42,466 nucleotides of DNA, taken from the NCBI GenBank assembly GCA_016839815.1, contig JAEOTM010000146.1, forward strand, positions 1 through 42,466, given 5' to 3'. Shown here piece after piece: positions 32,326 to 38,645 of the stretch. This DNA is from Candidatus Hodarchaeota archaeon (GTDB taxonomy: Archaea; Asgardarchaeota; Heimdallarchaeia; Hodarchaeales; Hodarchaeaceae). The translations under genes and the position numbers were made by a program. The notes below the pieces were generated by a model. It had not been told where the DNA came from and did not search any database. It was given only the letters and a program-made list of their open reading frames with translations. Position 1 is the stretch's first letter. Every line of letters begins with the position of its first letter.

Positions 32326-33054
32326 TTAGAGTGAACTTACGATCCTACTTTTTAACCGAATGATCTCTTTAAGCGCCTTCTCTCGATTTTTCTTCAAAAC
32401 AATAATAATTACTACATATTTTCGGAAACGATCCACAAAAACCATGAATTCCCTGCCTAATGAGAATTGTAGCTGCTCAATTTCTTGACCTATTAAAATA
32501 CTGGATTCTATTATCACTTTACACATTTGGGCAAGGGAATTAGCATGGGGATGAATATCAGGAATTGAGATTGTTGTGAAAACCTGGTGAAAATTTGGTT
32601 TTTCCAAGAGGATATAGTCAGAGAAAAACGAGTCATCCATTATATCAATAATTTTACTCAGACCGACAACATCAATCGAAATTAAGGAATTATATTCGTT
32701 TTTTAAAAAATCGTTGAAATCTACGAATTGATGGTCATCAAAGGATAGTTCCTGTAATTCATCCTTGAAAGTGGCTTCAAATCGTCTTATAGTCGTATTA
32801 GCAAAGTTCATTTCCTTTAAATCATGTTCATGGGAGAAGAATATACCATAAGTGTACTCTCCTTCAATGATATGTACAATATACTTTCCCTGGTCAATTG
32901 TTTTAATACCTGTATCATCAGTTTCTTTAACTGCATTGAGAACCGCACTCATTAAGCCTGCACGTAAATCTTCGTCAACATCAGAAAAACCAGGCATAAA
33001 GGAATGAGAAAAAAGTAAAAGCCCATTCTTTGTTGTGATATTGACGCCTATCAA
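32326..33054 (-). CDS. Longin-like domain + roadblock-like domain protein (Asgard type)
   Basis: I..KNGLLLF....D.DL.AGL.SAV....KE....I..I pattern and F..E...RFE..F helix; second ~110-aa helix-strand domain ending in strands plus a helix. Confidence 0.7.
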   Translation of the reverse strand: MIGVNITTKNGLLLFSHSFMPGFSDVDEDLRAGLMSAVLNAVKETDDTGIKTIDQGKYIVHIIEGEYTYGIFFSHEHDLKEMNFANTTIRRFEATFKDELQELSFDDHQFVDFNDFLKNEYNSLISIDVVGLSKIIDIMDDSFFSDYILLEKPNFHQVFTTISIPDIHPHANSLAQMCKVIIESSILIGQEIEQLQFSLGREFMVFVDRFRKYVVIIIVLKKNREKALKEIIRLKSRIVSSL

Positions 33055-33302
33055 CTCTATTACCTAGATTCTGTTCTACTCAAAAATTGATGAGAAACTA
33101 TCTCTAAATCTTTATGTACGTTGAGTAGATCTTTTGGATAAGTATTCTTTATTGCTACTTCTGTGGCTGGAATGAAAACGGTATATTGGATATGGGTAAT
33201 CGGGACACTAAAATAATTTTAGGAACAGATTAATAATTTACCAAAGTTTTCTTGCTGGATATATGATGAATTTATACATTTAACGATTCAGTTTAATTGA
33301 GG

Positions 33303-34538
33303 ATGACTGTGTTAATAATTGATCCTAGTATTTCTGGTGCGGCAGGTGATATGTTGATTGCCGCGTTATTAGATTTGCACTCTGAAGAGCAACGTAGCTC
33401 CTTTTGTAATATGTTTCAATCGAAGTTGATTGAATATGATCCTCAATTTCAACTGAGATGGGAGAAAATTACCATTGACGGTTTTTCAGGTATTCAACTT
33501 ATCACAGAGGCAAAAAAACGTTTTCCTCCCCATGTATTAGAATCACATCTGAATGCTTTAGGTCAATCGTTACTTAAGAATGAGCGATTTATTCGCAAAA
33601 CAAAAACAGCTCTTAACTATTTATTCGAGGCCGAGAAATCTATACACGGAATTAAAAGTGATAATTTCCATTTTCACGAATTAGCCACAATTGACACGAT
33701 CTTAGATATTGTGGGAGTCTTCTACCTTCTCGAATCTCTCCAACTTGAGGAATCCAAGTTATTTTTATTACCTATAGCAGTAGGGGGAGGTCAAAAAAGA
33801 ATTTCTCATGGTTTAGTTTCCATTCCAGCCCCAGCTACTACAAAAATCATTGAAATGGGTAATTTAAAGATTCAAGGAGGGCCTGTAGGGGGAGAATTAT
33901 TAACCCCTAGTGGTGCTGCGATTTTAGCATCCTTAGAGGCAATACCTATTCAATTTTTACCAGAGATGCATTTTGATAAAACAGGTAGAAGCTTCGGAAC
34001 TTTTTCTCCTAAAGAAGGAAAACAAGCGTTCCTGCAAGTAATTCTTGGAAAAACCCAAACGCACTTACATTCAGAGAGAATAATGACTCTAGAAACTAAT
34101 GTTGATGATGTAGATGGTGAAACTATCGGTTACTTGTTCGATATTCTATACCGTGAGAATCTAGTCTTGGATTTCATTGTAATTCATACCCTAATGAAGA
34201 AGAACAGACCGGGATATCTTCTTCAAGCCATAGTTGAACCAGATAAAGTACAGGAAGTATCCCTATTACTAATACGGGAATTAGGAACTCTAGGAGTTCG
34301 GGTGTTATCAGGTTATAGGCATATTATTCCCAGAAATTATACTACTCACAAAATTAAAATCAATCAGGGAGAGGATAGTGTTACTGTAAAACGAGGTTAT
34401 ATTGGCGAGGAAATGGTTACTGAAAAAGTGGAGTACGAGGATTTAAAACGAGTAGCGATTGCGAAAAAACAATCTCTCAGGAAAATCCGAAAAAATATTA
34501 CTATGAACATAGATAACGAGGAGAAGACCAATGAATGA
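33303..34538 (+). CDS. larC: Nickel-pincer cofactor Ni-insertion protein LarC
   Basis: DP..SG.AGDM..AAL.D, AE..IHG....HFHE....D...D, HG....PAPAT, EL.TP.GAA, LETNVDD, MKK.RPG, GTLGVR, EYED. Confidence 0.93.
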   Translation: MTVLIIDPSISGAAGDMLIAALLDLHSEEQRSSFCNMFQSKLIEYDPQFQLRWEKITIDGFSGIQLITEAKKRFPPHVLESHLNALGQSLLKNERFIRKTKTALNYLFEAEKSIHGIKSDNFHFHELATIDTILDIVGVFYLLESLQLEESKLFLLPIAVGGGQKRISHGLVSIPAPATTKIIEMGNLKIQGGPVGGELLTPSGAAILASLEAIPIQFLPEMHFDKTGRSFGTFSPKEGKQAFLQVILGKTQTHLHSERIMTLETNVDDVDGETIGYLFDILYRENLVLDFIVIHTLMKKNRPGYLLQAIVEPDKVQEVSLLLIRELGTLGVRVLSGYRHIIPRNYTTHKIKINQGEDSVTVKRGYIGEEMVTEKVEYEDLKRVAIAKKQSLRKIRKNITMNIDNEEKTNE

Positions 34539-35307
34539 TTTAGAGGAAATTTTAACAAAATTACAAGATGGAAAACTCAATGTTGAGGAAGCTATTAAAT
34601 TAATCAATCTTTTTGGTCTTGATTTTATAGCAGAGGGCGCAAAAGTGGATACTAGTCGTCATTTAAGACGTGGAATACCAGAAATTATTTTTGTTGAAAA
34701 AAAACGCCCCCCACTTGTCGTAGATATCGTTTCTTCTATTATGGAATCTCACCAAGTATGTTTACTCTCCCGAGTAATGGAAAAACACTTGACTCTTCTG
34801 AAAAGTGAATTAGACTCTACTTATACACTTGATATGTCATCTGAATCAGAACCCTATACTGTAACTGTTAAACGTAGTGATTACTCTCCACCCAATCCTA
34901 CACAAAATATTGGTATACTAACTGCTGGTTCCTCAGATATTCCAATTGCAGAAGAAGCAGAAGCAATTGCTCGTATTATGGGAGTTGGAGTTCTATCCTT
35001 TCATGACGTTGGAATTGCAGGAGTACATAGGTTATTCAGCCCATTAAAAGAACTTATAAATCAAAATGTAAAAGCTATTATTGTTATAGCAGGCATGGAA
35101 GGAGCTCTCCCCGCTATTGTCTCGAGTTTGGTTAGAGTTCCTGTAATTGGAGTTCCCGCTTCTACAGGCTATGGTTACGGGGGAGAAGGAAAAGCTGCAT
35201 TAATGTCCATGCTTCAAAGTTGCTCTCCTGGATTAGTTGTCGTGAATATTGATAATGGAATTAATGCAGGAGCAACAGCCGCGTTGATTGCTAAACAAAG
35301 TAAATAA
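34531..35307 (+). CDS. larB: Nickel-pincer cofactor NaAD carboxylase/hydrolase LarB
   Basis: D..R..R.G.PE.I, TAG.SD...AEEA, DVG.AG.HRL, AGMEGALP, PVIGVP.S.GYG, L.SC.PG..VVNIDNG; 8-nt overlap with larC. Confidence 0.95.
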   Translation: MNDLEEILTKLQDGKLNVEEAIKLINLFGLDFIAEGAKVDTSRHLRRGIPEIIFVEKKRPPLVVDIVSSIMESHQVCLLSRVMEKHLTLLKSELDSTYTLDMSSESEPYTVTVKRSDYSPPNPTQNIGILTAGSSDIPIAEEAEAIARIMGVGVLSFHDVGIAGVHRLFSPLKELINQNVKAIIVIAGMEGALPAIVSSLVRVPVIGVPASTGYGYGGEGKAALMSMLQSCSPGLVVVNIDNGINAGATAALIAKQSK

Positions 35308-35377
35308 ATATGGTATATTCGAGAAACACATAATCATAATTCATTGGATATTCGAGTTTGAGTGAGGCTTTAGATAA

Positions 35378-36052
35378 ATGTCAGAAGAAAAATCAAAATC
35401 GGATCAGACAGACGATAAGAAAGACGAAGATGTGGTGAAGAACGAGGAAGATGAAAAATCCTCACCTCCAGCTGAAGATAAACCACCTAAGAAGAAGTAT
35501 GTCTTCAATTGTACCAAATGTGGGCAATGCTGTGAGAAACGAGAGTATGTTCCTGTTTCATTTGATGATATTCGGAAGTGGACTCAATCAGGAGTTATCA
35601 ATTCCGTTTTTCCTAATTTAAAAATGCAAACTTTCCCAACCCAGATTCAGGGAGAAGTTAGAGAAGTTGTTTCGATTGTCATTTCAGCCTTGGATAAAGG
35701 AGGATGTCCTTTATTTGATCAAGAAAACAAGCTCTGTAATATCTATCATTCGATGCCTCTGGAGTGCCTCGCTTTTCCCCTTGGGTATAATGGAACTCAA
35801 TATTACGTAAAAGATAAAACTGTTCCAGGTCTGGGGAATGGAACAATGACAAAAGAACAACTCATTATAGATCGCGATAATGCAAGAAAAGATTTTGAAG
35901 CACGAGTAGACACACAAACTCTTCTCCCATTTACTTACACTCTTTTCATGCAAAATTTAATAGAACAACAACAGAAAATTCGCGAAGAAATGCCAGAAGA
36001 AAAACGAAAACAGCTAGATGACCTATTAAATACTGATAAACCAAAAGAATAG
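35378..36052 (+). CDS. YkgJ/FliB-family CxxCxxCC cysteine-cluster (Zn or Fe-S) protein
   Basis: F.CTKCGQCC, CPLF.....C.IY...P..C..FP; acidic low-complexity N-terminus. Confidence 0.88.
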   Translation: MSEEKSKSDQTDDKKDEDVVKNEEDEKSSPPAEDKPPKKKYVFNCTKCGQCCEKREYVPVSFDDIRKWTQSGVINSVFPNLKMQTFPTQIQGEVREVVSIVISALDKGGCPLFDQENKLCNIYHSMPLECLAFPLGYNGTQYYVKDKTVPGLGNGTMTKEQLIIDRDNARKDFEARVDTQTLLPFTYTLFMQNLIEQQQKIREEMPEEKRKQLDDLLNTDKPKE

Positions 36053-36061
36053 ATAGTTTCA

Positions 36062-36781
36062 TTACTGTGAGGGAGAATAATTACATTTCGAACAGATCCA
36101 CTTAGCAAAGGGCAAAATTAAATCATCTCTACCTTCCTGTTCCATTTTTTCTGAATAAGGTAATAAATGTCCCTTCCTACATTCAGGACAAGGAGGAGTG
36201 GTTATAACGCTGGTATTCTGGGGAATATAACTCTCCAAAGAAACTACATCCGCGCCACGAGGTTTAGGAGTTACTTTTTGGGTTTTTGTAGATGCTTTCT
36301 GACTAGTAGTTCTAGTCGAAGGCTTTTTTGCAGGTGTTTTACGAGTAGAAGGTTTGCGTGTTGTTTTTGAGGTAGATGTCTTTTTTGGTGTAGATTTGGT
36401 TTTTTTTGTACTTTTTTTCTTTGATCTTGTTGGTTTGGTTTTTTTGGCTGTTTTGCTCTCTTTGCCACCATCAGCTAGTTCTGGAACCAATCCATTTTTT
36501 GGAATGGATTCAATGCACTCTAAGAATTCTCGTGCCTCTTCACCTTGATCTACTGTTTGTACACGATAAGTTAACCCATAAATTCTACGGATCTCTGTCG
36601 CAGCAGTAGAAGCAATAAACCGAGTCTTAACAGCGGCTCCTTTTCCAATCCAAATCCAGATTTTCTTTTTTTCAACACCCACAAGAATAAAAACTGCTTC
36701 TGCTTTGAGTTCTTTTGGGGAAAAAGCCACTGGATCCCAATGTCCGTCAGGTGTTACGGAATATGCAACGAGTCGCGTCAA
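36062..36781 (-). CDS. Gelsolin-like domain + Lys/Thr/Ser-rich linker + C4 zinc ribbon
   Basis: L...AVFILV.....IWIWIGK.A....RF.A...A..I......V..VDQGEE..EF gelsolin-repeat pattern; aa 109-175 basic; CPEC...WICSKC. Confidence 0.8.
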   Translation of the reverse strand: MTRLVAYSVTPDGHWDPVAFSPKELKAEAVFILVGVEKKKIWIWIGKGAAVKTRFIASTAATEIRRIYGLTYRVQTVDQGEEAREFLECIESIPKNGLVPELADGGKESKTAKKTKPTRSKKKSTKKTKSTPKKTSTSKTTRKPSTRKTPAKKPSTRTTSQKASTKTQKVTPKPRGADVVSLESYIPQNTSVITTPPCPECRKGHLLPYSEKMEQEGRDDLILPFAKWICSKCNYSPSQ

Positions 36782-36826
36782 TTATTCATCTACTGCCTTT
36801 TCACATAATATAGGAGAATTTCCCAG

Positions 36827-36842
36827 TATATAATGCAAAAAA
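36827..36842 (-). promoter_or_regulatory. Candidate T6 terminator of the upstream gene followed by TTATATA TATA box for the gelsolin gene
   Basis: Minus strand reads ...TTCTTTTTTGCATTATATAC..., ~45 nt upstream of the 36781 start. Confidence 0.35.
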
Positions 36843-36892
36843 GAAGGGGGGGTTAAAGTTTTCCCATCAGATTCTTTGAAGTTATCAAACTC

Positions 36893-37549
36893 CTATCGGG
36901 CTTGATTATTTTTTTTTTCAGAATATCCCATTAAAGCTCTTATTCTAACCAGTAGTAAAGGAATATTTCTAATATCTACAGTCTTGTGTAAAAGTACATG
37001 GTTTTTTGCATATTTCACCTTCTCACCAACGAGAAAATCAAATATTCGTTTTTTCTCTGGAAAATCCAAAGGAAGAAAAACAGTAAAATTCAATTCCTGC
37101 AGAAATAATCCTTTCAATGAGGTTAATTTTCGTGAGACTCTTACCGAGTAATTACCGAATGGTATTGTGTACCCTCTCACAGGTAGATAAAAACGCTTCG
37201 TTGAAAACTGAGATTTTAGTTGGGGCTTAGATATCCCTAAATTCGATACTGTTGGGATATAAGCAATTATTATAGTTCCTGCTAGAATTAATGGTACGAA
37301 AACCCAGATAGAATTGCTAACAAATATAGAAAGATTAAAATTGCGTGCTGCTGCTTCGTCATAAGTTACATTCTCTACTAGTGGAGGATCAGTTTCGGGA
37401 TTTGAACTCAATGAAGAATTAATACTATTTAACAGTAGAAGTGTTGACCCAATGAAACAGATCGAAATCAAAAGGACATATGATAACTGAGCAAGCCTTA
37501 TGTTAAAACTTGGACCGCGTAACATTCTTATTTTACCCCTATACTTCAT
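36893..37549 (-). CDS. Hypothetical two-TM membrane protein with basic C-terminal soluble domain
   Basis: Two hydrophobic segments flanking a Ser/Asn/Pro-rich loop containing NxS/T sequons; ATGA overlap with the upstream wHTH gene. Confidence 0.75.
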   Translation of the reverse strand: MKYRGKIRMLRGPSFNIRLAQLSYVLLISICFIGSTLLLLNSINSSLSSNPETDPPLVENVTYDEAAARNFNLSIFVSNSIWVFVPLILAGTIIIAYIPTVSNLGISKPQLKSQFSTKRFYLPVRGYTIPFGNYSVRVSRKLTSLKGLFLQELNFTVFLPLDFPEKKRIFDFLVGEKVKYAKNHVLLHKTVDIRNIPLLLVRIRALMGYSEKKNNQAR

Positions 37550-38022
37550 TCATTCTTGATGATAGTGTCTAATTCTCTACCATGTAGTTTCACAAGTTCA
37601 ATGAGTCTTTCCATGAAGCGATTTTCAGCATTCGCATAGATCAATTTTAACCGTGGATGAATATCTTCTGTGGAAACTAAATGTTGAGTACGTAAAAACT
37701 TTAAATCTCTATATATTGACTTACTTTTTTCCGAAATTCCTAAACTTCTAGCTAATTCAATTCCCGAACTACCTTTCGGATAGATAGTAACCAACTGCAT
37801 AAGTATCAACCGTTGATGTAATGAAAGTGGGGATGTAAATAGATAGAGAATTGCTGCATAATAATCACGTGTTAGATCTGTAATACGGGTAGATAATGTA
37901 TCCAGATAATCCTTGATTTCAGGTTTCACTTGGGAGGTTGTATTTAATGATGCAAGGATTTTTTCTAATGTGTCATTATCCTTTTTATCGTCCTCTAGTA
38001 TCCGAAAAGTCATAATTTCCAC
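37546..38022 (-). CDS. Winged-helix transcriptional regulator (ArsR/MarR-like)
   Basis: IL..L....P.G.S..ELA..LG.....KSIYR.LK.L....LV HTH pattern and wing. Confidence 0.78.
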   Translation of the reverse strand: MEIMTFRILEDDKKDNDTLEKILASLNTTSQVKPEIKDYLDTLSTRITDLTRDYYAAILYLFTSPLSLHQRLILMQLVTIYPKGSSGIELARSLGISEKSKSIYRDLKFLRTQHLVSTEDIHPRLKLIYANAENRFMERLIELVKLHGRELDTIIKNE

Positions 38023-38192
38023 TTACTCTATCTATATTTTGGGGTTTATTAAGTCTAAAGGAGGTGTATTCTGCTACACAAATATCCTCTTGATGATCAT
38101 GAATAAATTGAGATCAAGATATAAATTGAAAAGGTTTTTTTGAGGTACAAAGGTTGAAGGTTTATACAAAAAGAGTGGTTAATAGGAGAGGA

Positions 38193-38645
38193 ATGACAGT
38201 CAGCGAGGATCAGCCAGTCAATTATGAGACTGCAATTAAGGGTACAACGCTGGATGTCTATTTCTACTTACTACGAAAAAAAGAAGCGGCTGGAGTCCGG
38301 GAGATTCAACGCAGTTTGGGCCTTTCATCCCCTAGTGTATCAAGCTATCATTTAGATAAATTAGAATCTCTGGGGGTTATCAGAAAAAATCGATTTGGAA
38401 ATTTTGAAATCGCAAAAAAAATTGATATCGGTGCATTAAACCAATTCATACTTGTCAGAAATTTTACTCTTCCCCGTTTCCTCTTCTATGCTGTTTTTAT
38501 CTCTATACTCTTTGTAGGTTACATTCTTTTTTTCTTCACCCTTCCCCTAACAACCGGAAAATTATTTGCACTCCTATTTGGAGCGATAGCTACAGCAATT
38601 TGCTGGATAGAGACTTATCTTTCCTGGTTGAAACGTCCATTTTAG
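38193..38645 (+). CDS. Winged-helix regulator with two C-terminal TM helices
   Basis: GTTL.VY.YLL......GVREIQR.LG.SSPS...YHL.KL...G; two hydrophobic helices. AGGAG before ATG 38193. Confidence 0.85.
   Translation: MTVSEDQPVNYETAIKGTTLDVYFYLLRKKEAAGVREIQRSLGLSSPSVSSYHLDKLESLGVIRKNRFGNFEIAKKIDIGALNQFILVRNFTLPRFLFYAVFISILFVGYILFFFTLPLTTGKLFALLFGAIATAICWIETYLSWLKRPF

Follow-up and report, generated by a model that had tools for sequence, protein, structure and literature searches.

A ProGel-like gelsolin domain, a polybasic linker and a putative zinc ribbon in one genus of Hodarchaeales: a candidate Ca2+-independent actin regulator

What might be the role, in an archaeon, of a protein in which a gelsolin domain is followed by a strongly basic tail and a C-terminal zinc ribbon? 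In Asgard archaea, profilins and small gelsolins are the main regulators of an actin cytoskeleton that resembles that of eukaryotes. The gene that raises the question lies in a window of 42,466 nucleotides, the whole stretch of DNA that was analysed (contig JAEOTM010000146.1 of the Candidatus Hodarchaeota assembly GCA_016839815.1), where it occupies positions 36062..36781 of the minus strand, stop codon included, and codes for a protein of 239 residues. A sequence-only reading had proposed that the protein might link actin to DNA or to a membrane. The names ProGel, 1DGelX (a gelsolin domain plus a domain X) and 2DGel, used throughout, were defined by Akıl et al. (2020; PNAS 117:19904; PMC7444086).

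The TTG start codon (36781-36779, minus strand; the stop codon is at 36064-36062) is immediately preceded by an in-frame TAA. We judged this start to be correct because the orthologues begin M-T-R-L-V-A-Y at the matching position of the family alignment, that is, with Met at the same residue, and because any later start would remove the first strand of the predicted fold. A database protein, P0002, was 100% identical to the translation, and 31 homologues were found besides. The spacer upstream of the gene (111 nt; 36782..36892, minus strand) shows, when the sequence is read by eye, two A/T-rich boxes resembling TATA elements, which lie some 30-36 and 56-62 nt upstream of the TTG, and possibly provides the gene with a promoter of its own.

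Of the 21 genomes sampled from the genus to which the window belongs, 20 have the fusion, each in single copy. When 301 genomes of the phylum were scanned with the ribbon profile, widened for the purpose with lone ribbon mini-proteins (profile A3), the fusion was found in no other family sampled; elsewhere the scan returned only short frames coding for a ribbon alone, for example in three of the four genomes of one family. In the genome to which the window belongs the ribbon is present once only. The fusion is carried by records of metagenome-assembled genomes named 'Candidatus Hodarchaeota' and 'Heimdallarchaeota', B3_Heim included. Among the genomes sampled, the gene is specific to one genus-level group of Hodarchaeales (Asgard archaea).

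The order of the surrounding genes is also conserved, and runs from a wHTH protein and a protein with two membrane-spanning helices through the gelsolin-ribbon gene to a CxxCxxCC protein, LarB and LarC; it is retained down to 40% identity, within one genus only. The two genes upstream, coding for the wHTH-like and the two-helix membrane protein, lie on the same strand, are unannotated and have reading frames that overlap by 4 nt, and the other housekeeping neighbours include Nep1 and an ITPase-like NTPase. P0044, a distant relative to which we return below, has different neighbours, an ATP-grasp protein and an ABC permease. Because the whole region is syntenic in one genus and the neighbours of P0044 differ, we infer no function from the gene order. 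Nor did the neighbours of one lone ribbon mini-protein from a different Asgard family, a CobW-type GTPase and a 2-hydroxyacid dehydrogenase, offer a lead.

Residues 1-96 (36494..36781, minus strand) were assigned to a gelsolin-homology domain by Pfam, AF2 and Foldseek. PF00626 matched residues 17-87 (36521-36733, minus strand) with 23.6 bits, the gathering cut-off being 21, and with 26 bits in the genome scan; this is the only Pfam gelsolin stretch in the protein, and an extension of 143 residues follows the domain. By sequence, the best solved relative was domain 2 of the Heimdall 2DGel (7whf_G, E 2.4e-7), followed by villin, the Loki 2DGel and Thor 2DGel3/ProGel. In the AF2 model, which was built on 28 homologues, pLDDT is about 80 across residues 1-96. 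Foldseek placed Thor ProGel (7c2f_B) first, with a TM score of 0.92 on the target and an rmsd of 1.2 Å over 87 columns; 113 PDB matches to the model of the domain had E<=0.001, and the best 50 of these 113 were all gelsolin-family domains. The single gelsolin repeat that had been recognized by eye at residues ~1-92 is thus borne out, both by a Pfam score above the cut-off and by the ProGel-like fold. A kinship with proteins that combine a Sec23/24-type zinc finger with a gelsolin domain was considered and rejected, as their domains come in the opposite order and every match obtained, by sequence or by fold, is to a member of the gelsolin, villin or Asgard gelsolin families.

In the family alignment, the WxG motif corresponds to W44-I45-G46, with W44 and G46 invariant, and the long helix formed by residues 51-68 bears most of the invariant residues (V51, R54, F55, I56, S58, A61, E63, I64, R65, R66 and G69). 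The long helix of gelsolin G1 and of ProGel inserts between actin subdomains 1 and 3, and the closest solved structures matched here are of Asgard gelsolins crystallised on actin. From the fold and the conserved helix we infer that the domain is of the actin-binding, ProGel-like type. Conservation extends beyond the domain into residues 92-103 (S-I-P-K-N-G-L-V-P-E-L; 36473..36508, minus strand), a segment delimited by its invariant columns and in which G97 and P100 are invariant. The first 10-20 residues of the Loki2DGel linker lie on actin (PMC9433394) and, by analogy, residues 92-103 may continue the actin interface.

The sequence-only reading had also suggested that the Type II Ca2+ ligands of the domain are replaced. 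To read the ligand positions we used an alignment with both domains of the genome's own 2DGel and with Heim2DGel. The Type II Asp, which lies in GD-x-Y/F two positions ahead of the aromatic residue of the central strand, corresponds to Ala29, at a position that is variable among the orthologues (A/S/T/V/E/Q/K), and the Type II Glu at the start of the helix, seven residues past the Gly of WxG, corresponds to Thr53, which is nearly invariant among them. Aligned to Ca-binding 2DGel domains, both Type II ligands are therefore indeed replaced. Moreover, the Type I Asp, located on the helix, corresponds to Arg65/66. The 2DGel of the same genome retains acidic residues at the Type II positions of both domains (D/D and D/E), and the other one-domain gelsolins of the genome likewise have no acidic residue at the start of the helix. 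This pattern fits the published rule that Asgard two-domain gelsolins bind Ca2+ and one-domain gelsolins do not (PMC7444086). We read the protein as Ca2+-independent because the Type II and Type I ligands are replaced here and in all of the one-domain paralogues, and because the published Asgard one-domain gelsolins are without Ca2+ control.

As to the possible partner of the domain, the actin of a cultured Hodarchaeales strain, HC1, has been purified and its structure solved (PDB 9wc4). Against it, the main actin of the genome scored 714 bits, with an identity of roughly 83% as counted by eye in the alignment; against eukaryotic actins the score was about 545 bits. By these scores the genome encodes a bona fide lokiactin, and this actin is acidic (pI 5.75, net charge -7). 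The genome also encodes two ProGels of 117 and 118 residues, two further one-domain gelsolins of 297 and 314 residues, which combine Pro/Lys- or Pro/Thr/Ser-rich linkers with unrelated domains at the C-terminus, and a 2DGel of 417 residues that has an acidic, Pro-rich linker as well as a further domain. Among the gelsolins of the genome, an extreme lysine-rich linker is found only in the paralogue that bears the ribbon. The comparison of the paralogues points to a recurring plan, in which a floppy linker joins a head that binds actin to a C-terminal module that varies, and this modular plan supports the idea that the ribbon serves as a targeting or docking tag.

The ribbon itself, delimited by alignment and AF2, comprises the last 47 residues (193-239; 36065..36205, minus strand) and follows a linker of 96 residues. 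It contains the knuckles CPEC (36179-36190, minus strand) and CSKC (36083-36094, minus strand), in the arrangement CPEC-x28-CSKC that had been noticed at the C-terminus before. C198, C230 and C233 are invariant in the family alignment and C201 is found in 27 of the 28 sequences; the motifs T-P-x-C-P, G-x-L-L-P-Y-S, L-P-x-x-x-W-x-C-S-x-C and S-P are also invariant. In the full model a long two-stranded beta-hairpin joins the knuckles, with a pLDDT of 80-85, and the ribbon modelled alone has a pLDDT of 83. The segment is thus modelled as a conserved C4 zinc ribbon and is a putative zinc binder. Its charge is near neutral (pI 5.7, with 6 K/R and 6 D/E), which makes it a poor candidate for the binding of polyanions.

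Even with E values of up to 10 allowed, Pfam offered no family for either linker or ribbon. When the model of the ribbon was compared with the PDB by Foldseek and VIA-align (wide), only weak matches were obtained, to the N-domain of MqsA, RNA polymerase I A12.2, ZPR1, TFIIS and L37ae (E of at least 0.37; Z 2.1-2.9). Searches of the PDB sequences with the single sequence and with the profile gave chance-level matches to the RNF141 RING, S27ae and Hpy99I (E of at least 0.05), and searches of the ESM Atlas by shape and by features with the model of the ribbon returned only generic small zinc ribbons and mini-proteins. Against 1.84 billion representative proteins, the ribbon profile detected 26 proteins at E<=0.001, which comprise the fusion family and, besides it, about 15 lone proteins of 49-84 residues with the signature C-P-x-C, G-x-L-x-P-x-S, W-x-C-x-x-C. 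One of the 26, a C2H2 finger protein, was discarded as a false positive. The distant relative P0044 (199 residues) combines a gelsolin domain and the same ribbon with an acidic, proline-rich linker.

Residues 97-192 (96 residues; 36206..36493, minus strand) form the linker, which was judged to be disordered from the AF2 model. The pLDDT of the model is 34-50 over these residues, and no helix is seen after residue 91, only the disordered linker and the beta-hairpin of the ribbon. The linker has 27 K/R and 5 D/E, and a pI of 11.4 when computed on residues 101-181. A composition count defines within it a polybasic core free of acidic residues (residues 109-175; 36257..36457, minus strand), whose 67 residues include 21 K, 5 R, 18 T, 10 S and 7 P, with the motifs TPKK at residue 131, TPAKK at 149 and TPKP near 171, and with KPSTR occurring twice, at 143 and 153. 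The 26 K/R, the absence of D/E, the three motifs and the duplicate are exactly as had been counted by the sequence-only reading. Tandem repeats at the DNA level are short and weak in the linker (scores 30-50) and give no grounds for proposing that repeats expanded recently. We conclude that the gene is real and conserved and codes for a protein of three parts, a gelsolin domain, a basic disordered linker and a zinc ribbon.

How unusual is such a linker? With a basic window defined as 50 residues that include 15 or more K/R and no more than 2 D/E, 54 of the 4606 ORFs of at least 100 residues in the 4.24-Mb assembly were found to have one, and the gelsolin/ribbon protein ties for the most basic window genome-wide, with a net charge of +21. 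This ranking argues that the basic run is not a chance outcome of an AT-rich genome. Among the 28 homologues, the mean pairwise identity is 70.5% in the gelsolin domain, nearly the same in the ribbon (70%) and much lower in the linker (28%), the length of which ranges from 40 to 93 residues within the genus. The net charge of the linker is +15 to +29 in 27 of the 28 metagenome homologues and +6 in the remaining one, and it is +5 to +27 in the species representatives of the genus, whose linkers measure 40-89 residues. What the linker conserves is positive charge, not sequence, and the charge of the tail, on which the earlier proposal depended, is kept in every member of the genus (net +5 to +29).

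The low identity and the variable length would also be in line with a plain spacer, the charge of which keeps the linker extended and soluble, with function residing in the gelsolin domain and in targeting mediated by the ribbon. The paralogues and the Loki 2DGels place Pro-rich or acidic linkers between gelsolin and C-terminal domain, P0044 pairs its acidic linker with the same ribbon, and the ribbon, with many invariant residues other than Cys, is as conserved as the gelsolin domain. However, a linker that is net positive in every member of the genus, that nearly excludes acidic residues over 60-90 residues and that ties for the most basic window of the genome exceeds the needs of a spacer. 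We regard this explanation as doubtful, if still credible.

The composition of the linker suggested a different possibility, in which a tail rich in Ser, Thr, Pro and Lys binds DNA, RNA or ribosomes in the manner of the tails of histone H1 or of ribosomal proteins, and the gelsolin domain ties them to actin. The 67-residue core is free of acidic residues, rich in lysine and has three motifs of the S/T-P-x-K type; 1.4 are expected in the protein from shuffled sequences, so that the enrichment is not significant (p ~0.15). Family-wide, 60 motifs were counted against 31 expected, an enrichment of about 2-fold among sequences that are related, and 4 of the 28 members have no such motif. The tail has a weak, non-significant similarity to the extension of L23a, as has the ribbon to the S27ae, TFIIS and Rpb9-type ribbons. 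The only other strong K/T/S-rich tail of similar style in the genome is found on a translation factor, aIF2-gamma, where a K-rich N-terminal tail is in frame in 5 of 6 sampled relatives of the genus; this is of slight help to the idea. Conversely, the Pfam scan of the protein detected neither a Linker_histone (H1 globular) domain nor any nucleic-acid-binding family, the composition is Thr/Ser-rich and not Ala-rich, the ribbon is near neutral, the linker of P0044 is acidic, and the neighbours are unrelated housekeeping genes. Coupling of actin to nucleic acids is, in our view, unlikely.

What remains of the histone H1-like tail proposed by the sequence-only reading is the conserved positive charge; the match to Linker_histone is missing, and the motifs are neither significantly enriched in the protein nor found in all of its homologues. 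With no H1 domain, a near-neutral ribbon, S/TPKK motifs that are weak and not universal and an acidic linker in P0044, the actin-to-DNA link lacks specific evidence. A protein dedicated to coupling actin to the chromosome, or to ribosomes or RNA, through an H1-like tail, possibly tuned by phosphorylation at Ser/Thr-Pro, seems to us highly improbable. If true, such coupling would represent a primitive, actin-based positioning of DNA or of the translation machinery, in Hodarchaeales, the archaeal group proposed as closest to eukaryotes.

The polybasic regions of gelsolin and twinfilin bind PIP2. Given the high density of positive charge, it could be envisaged that the linker binds anionic archaeal lipids, and thereby places a capping or severing domain at the membrane or in protrusions. 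The linker, however, lacks hydrophobic and aromatic residues, and neither an amphipathic helix nor a lipidation motif is seen in it. The domain X of the Thor protein is of a different nature, a predicted coiled coil, and its localisation is therefore not transferable, and the two-helix membrane protein encoded upstream is linked to the gene by genus-wide synteny only and is not found beside P0044. A role as a membrane tether thus appears quite improbable.

The interpretation that we favor, with a probability of roughly 0.55, is that the protein belongs to the 1DGelX kind and regulates actin independently of Ca2+, its basic linker binding F-actin and its ribbon docking on a partner. The gelsolin domain would sit in the cleft between subdomains 1 and 3 of the host lokiactin, by analogy with ProGel and gelsolin G1, and the polybasic linker would bind along the negatively charged side of the filament, raising both the affinity and the local concentration of the domain. 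Polycations reportedly bundle F-actin, a finding attributed to Tang and Janmey in 1996. With the help of the linker, a single weak gelsolin domain might cap, sever or bundle filaments, which is the function suggested by Akıl et al. for the Thor 1DGelX extension. The ribbon, in turn, would act as a docking tag for a cellular partner and not as a polyanion binder.

Some observations call for caution with the actin reading. A ProGel-like domain is no guarantee of strong binding, as the Kd of ~337 µM of Thor ProGel illustrates, and extensions do not always bind filaments, as in the case of the Zn domain of Loki2DGel and the tail of Heim2DGel. The acidic linker of P0044 implies that positive charge is not needed by every member of the wider family. 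Also, a polybasic tail can be expected to bind polyanions of any kind in vitro, F-actin being only the most economical candidate.

How added tails give one- and two-domain gelsolins new activities is a question raised by both papers of Akıl et al. (PMC7444086; PMC9433394). Nature provides a clean test of activity added by a tail in this case, where a ProGel-like domain bears an extremely polycationic linker. If charge alone turns a weak binder into a protein that binds the side of filaments, severs or bundles them, this would be a simple, pre-eukaryotic route to functional diversification.

It remains to compare the protein with known systems. The tail shares with the C-terminal tail of histone H1 and its SPKK motifs a lysine-rich, acid-free and disordered nature and a few S/T-P-x-K motifs. 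The Hodarchaeales protein differs in that it has no winged-helix globular domain, and its tail is rich in Thr and Ser, with motifs that are neither significant nor universal; the tails of H1 are Ala-rich. As judged from the sequences, the resemblance is one of composition only.

A closer parallel is with the one-domain gelsolins of Thorarchaeota, the Thor proteins. Thor ProGel (7C2F) is the best structural match and, like the domain described here, is a one-domain gelsolin without Ca2+ sites, the difference being that ProGel has no extension; alone, it binds rabbit actin very weakly, with a Kd of ~337 µM (PMC7444086). Thor 1DGelX binds actin with a Kd of 7.7 µM and nucleates and severs in the absence of Ca2+, and the authors proposed that its extension supplies binding to the side of filaments (PMC7444086). 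It resembles the Hodarchaeales protein in having one gelsolin domain without Ca2+ sites, followed by a C-terminal extension that is not a gelsolin domain. Its domain X is a predicted coiled coil, and 1DGelX runs near the size of actin on gels (PMC7444086); here, in contrast, the extension consists of a disordered polybasic linker and a ribbon of 47 residues, so that the two are set apart by description.

The other parallel is with Loki2DGel and MKD1-2DGel, which have two gelsolin domains, a linker of 69-79 residues and a (CxxC)2 Zn domain (Akıl et al., 2022; Commun Biol 5:890; PMC9433394; PDB 7WHG). Both designs have gelsolin domain(s), a linker of 70-90 residues and, at the C-terminus, a zinc domain of the (CxxC)2 type that includes a long hairpin, and the zinc domain of each also exists as a lone mini-protein. 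The Zn domain of the Loki proteins is found on other proteins too and as a lone protein of 64 residues, and the authors found none outside Loki; neither this domain of Loki2DGel nor the tail of Heim2DGel co-sedimented with F-actin (PMC9433394). The Loki proteins have two Ca2+-binding gelsolin domains, whereas the Hodarchaeales protein has one, without Ca2+ ligands, and the Loki linkers are acidic (pI 4.6-4.7) or made of PEPVQV repeats, whereas the Hodarchaeales linker is polybasic. Nor do the zinc domains show significant similarity in profile comparison. As a reference we used 11 Loki-type C-termini (set A4), extracted from genomes that belong to a different family within the phylum, which have the pattern CPKC-x30-CGxCG with an invariant D-Y-P-R-x-Y-G. 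When the Hodarchaeales ribbon (A2 and A3) was aligned to these 11 C-termini with hhalign, the probabilities were 6.5% and 22%, the latter in the wrong register. Among the PDB sequences, the ribbon profile did not match the full-length Loki2DGel chain 7whg_G, and the widened profile A3 matched, weakly, 2 of the 68 genomes of the Loki-type family. The Hodarchaeales and Loki ribbons may thus be independent recruitments of small zinc ribbons, or may be very divergent.

In a full-text search of the literature, no paper was found to bring together gelsolin, a zinc ribbon and archaea, and those in which gelsolin is mentioned along with Hodarchaeales contained nothing on an architecture of gelsolin, basic linker and ribbon. 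The architecture had been thought undescribed, but 1DGelX (PMC7444086) and the gelsolin-linker-(CxxC)2 design of Loki2DGel and MKD1-2DGel (PMC9433394) were already published, and the protein is a variant of these Asgard gelsolin designs (1DGelX; Loki 2DGel-Link-Zn). What appears to be new is the polybasic linker, together with a zinc ribbon without detectable kinship to that of Loki. The design of gelsolin, linker and zinc-ribbon tag thus arose with two seemingly unrelated ribbons, in the Loki-type and in the Hodarchaeales lineages, which points to a general docking of actin regulators onto cellular partners.

Two unannotated genes lie upstream of the gelsolin-ribbon gene, on the same (minus) strand, at 36893-38022, and their location was conserved across every relative examined. 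The reading frames of the two genes overlap by 4 nt. One product is a wHTH-like protein of 158 residues; the other, of 218 residues, has two predicted membrane helices and a cytoplasmic domain of about 120 residues. Neither protein had a match in Pfam. A protein of 163 residues is encoded on the plus strand (38154-38645). It combines an ArsR/TrmB-like winged helix at the N-terminus with hydrophobic helices at the C-terminus, and may be a membrane-anchored transcription regulator.

The plus-strand genes at 33297-36052 code for LarC, a protein of nickel insertion, for a LarB-like protein of the AIR-carboxylase type with a SHOCT-like N-terminus and, following these, for a CxxCxxCC metal-binding protein whose N-terminal tail has both acidic and basic residues. 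The first two form a nickel-pincer cofactor gene pair; no LarE was seen near them. The conserved 242-residue protein encoded at 32326-33054 (minus strand) had no Pfam match; judged by eye, its N-terminal pattern resembles a longin or roadblock-type regulatory domain.

Elsewhere in the genome, the gene for aIF2-gamma (contig C64, 7253-8732; positions 251-1732 of locus L089; minus strand) codes for a polybasic N-terminal extension rich in Lys, Thr, Ser and Ala. Among the sampled relatives of the genus (loci L095-L100), five of six carry the extension in frame after an ATG, TTG or GTG start, with a length of 36-85 residues and 13-23 Lys/Arg. In this genome and in a second one, G119, the aIF2-gamma frame lacks a start codon ahead of the G-H-V-D-H-G-K motif. 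The ATG of the former lies in a different frame, 5' of an A-run, so the frame break is an assembly frameshift or homopolymer slippage.

The genome also encodes two additional one-domain gelsolins, of 297 (contig C109; L006, 898-1788, minus strand) and 314 residues (contig C118; L007, 1447-2388, plus strand). Their C-terminal domains had no Pfam match, and their linkers are rich in Pro/Lys or Pro/Thr/Ser; that of the C118 protein runs for about 70 residues without an acidic one and repeats S-T-P-K/R-P. P0044, a 199-residue relative from a different lineage (metagenome contig L093, 1083-1682), likewise combines a gelsolin domain with a zinc ribbon of the type seen in the gelsolin-ribbon protein; the linker that connects them is acidic and proline-rich. 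Its gene is flanked by an ATP-grasp gene on one side and by one for an ABC permease on the other.
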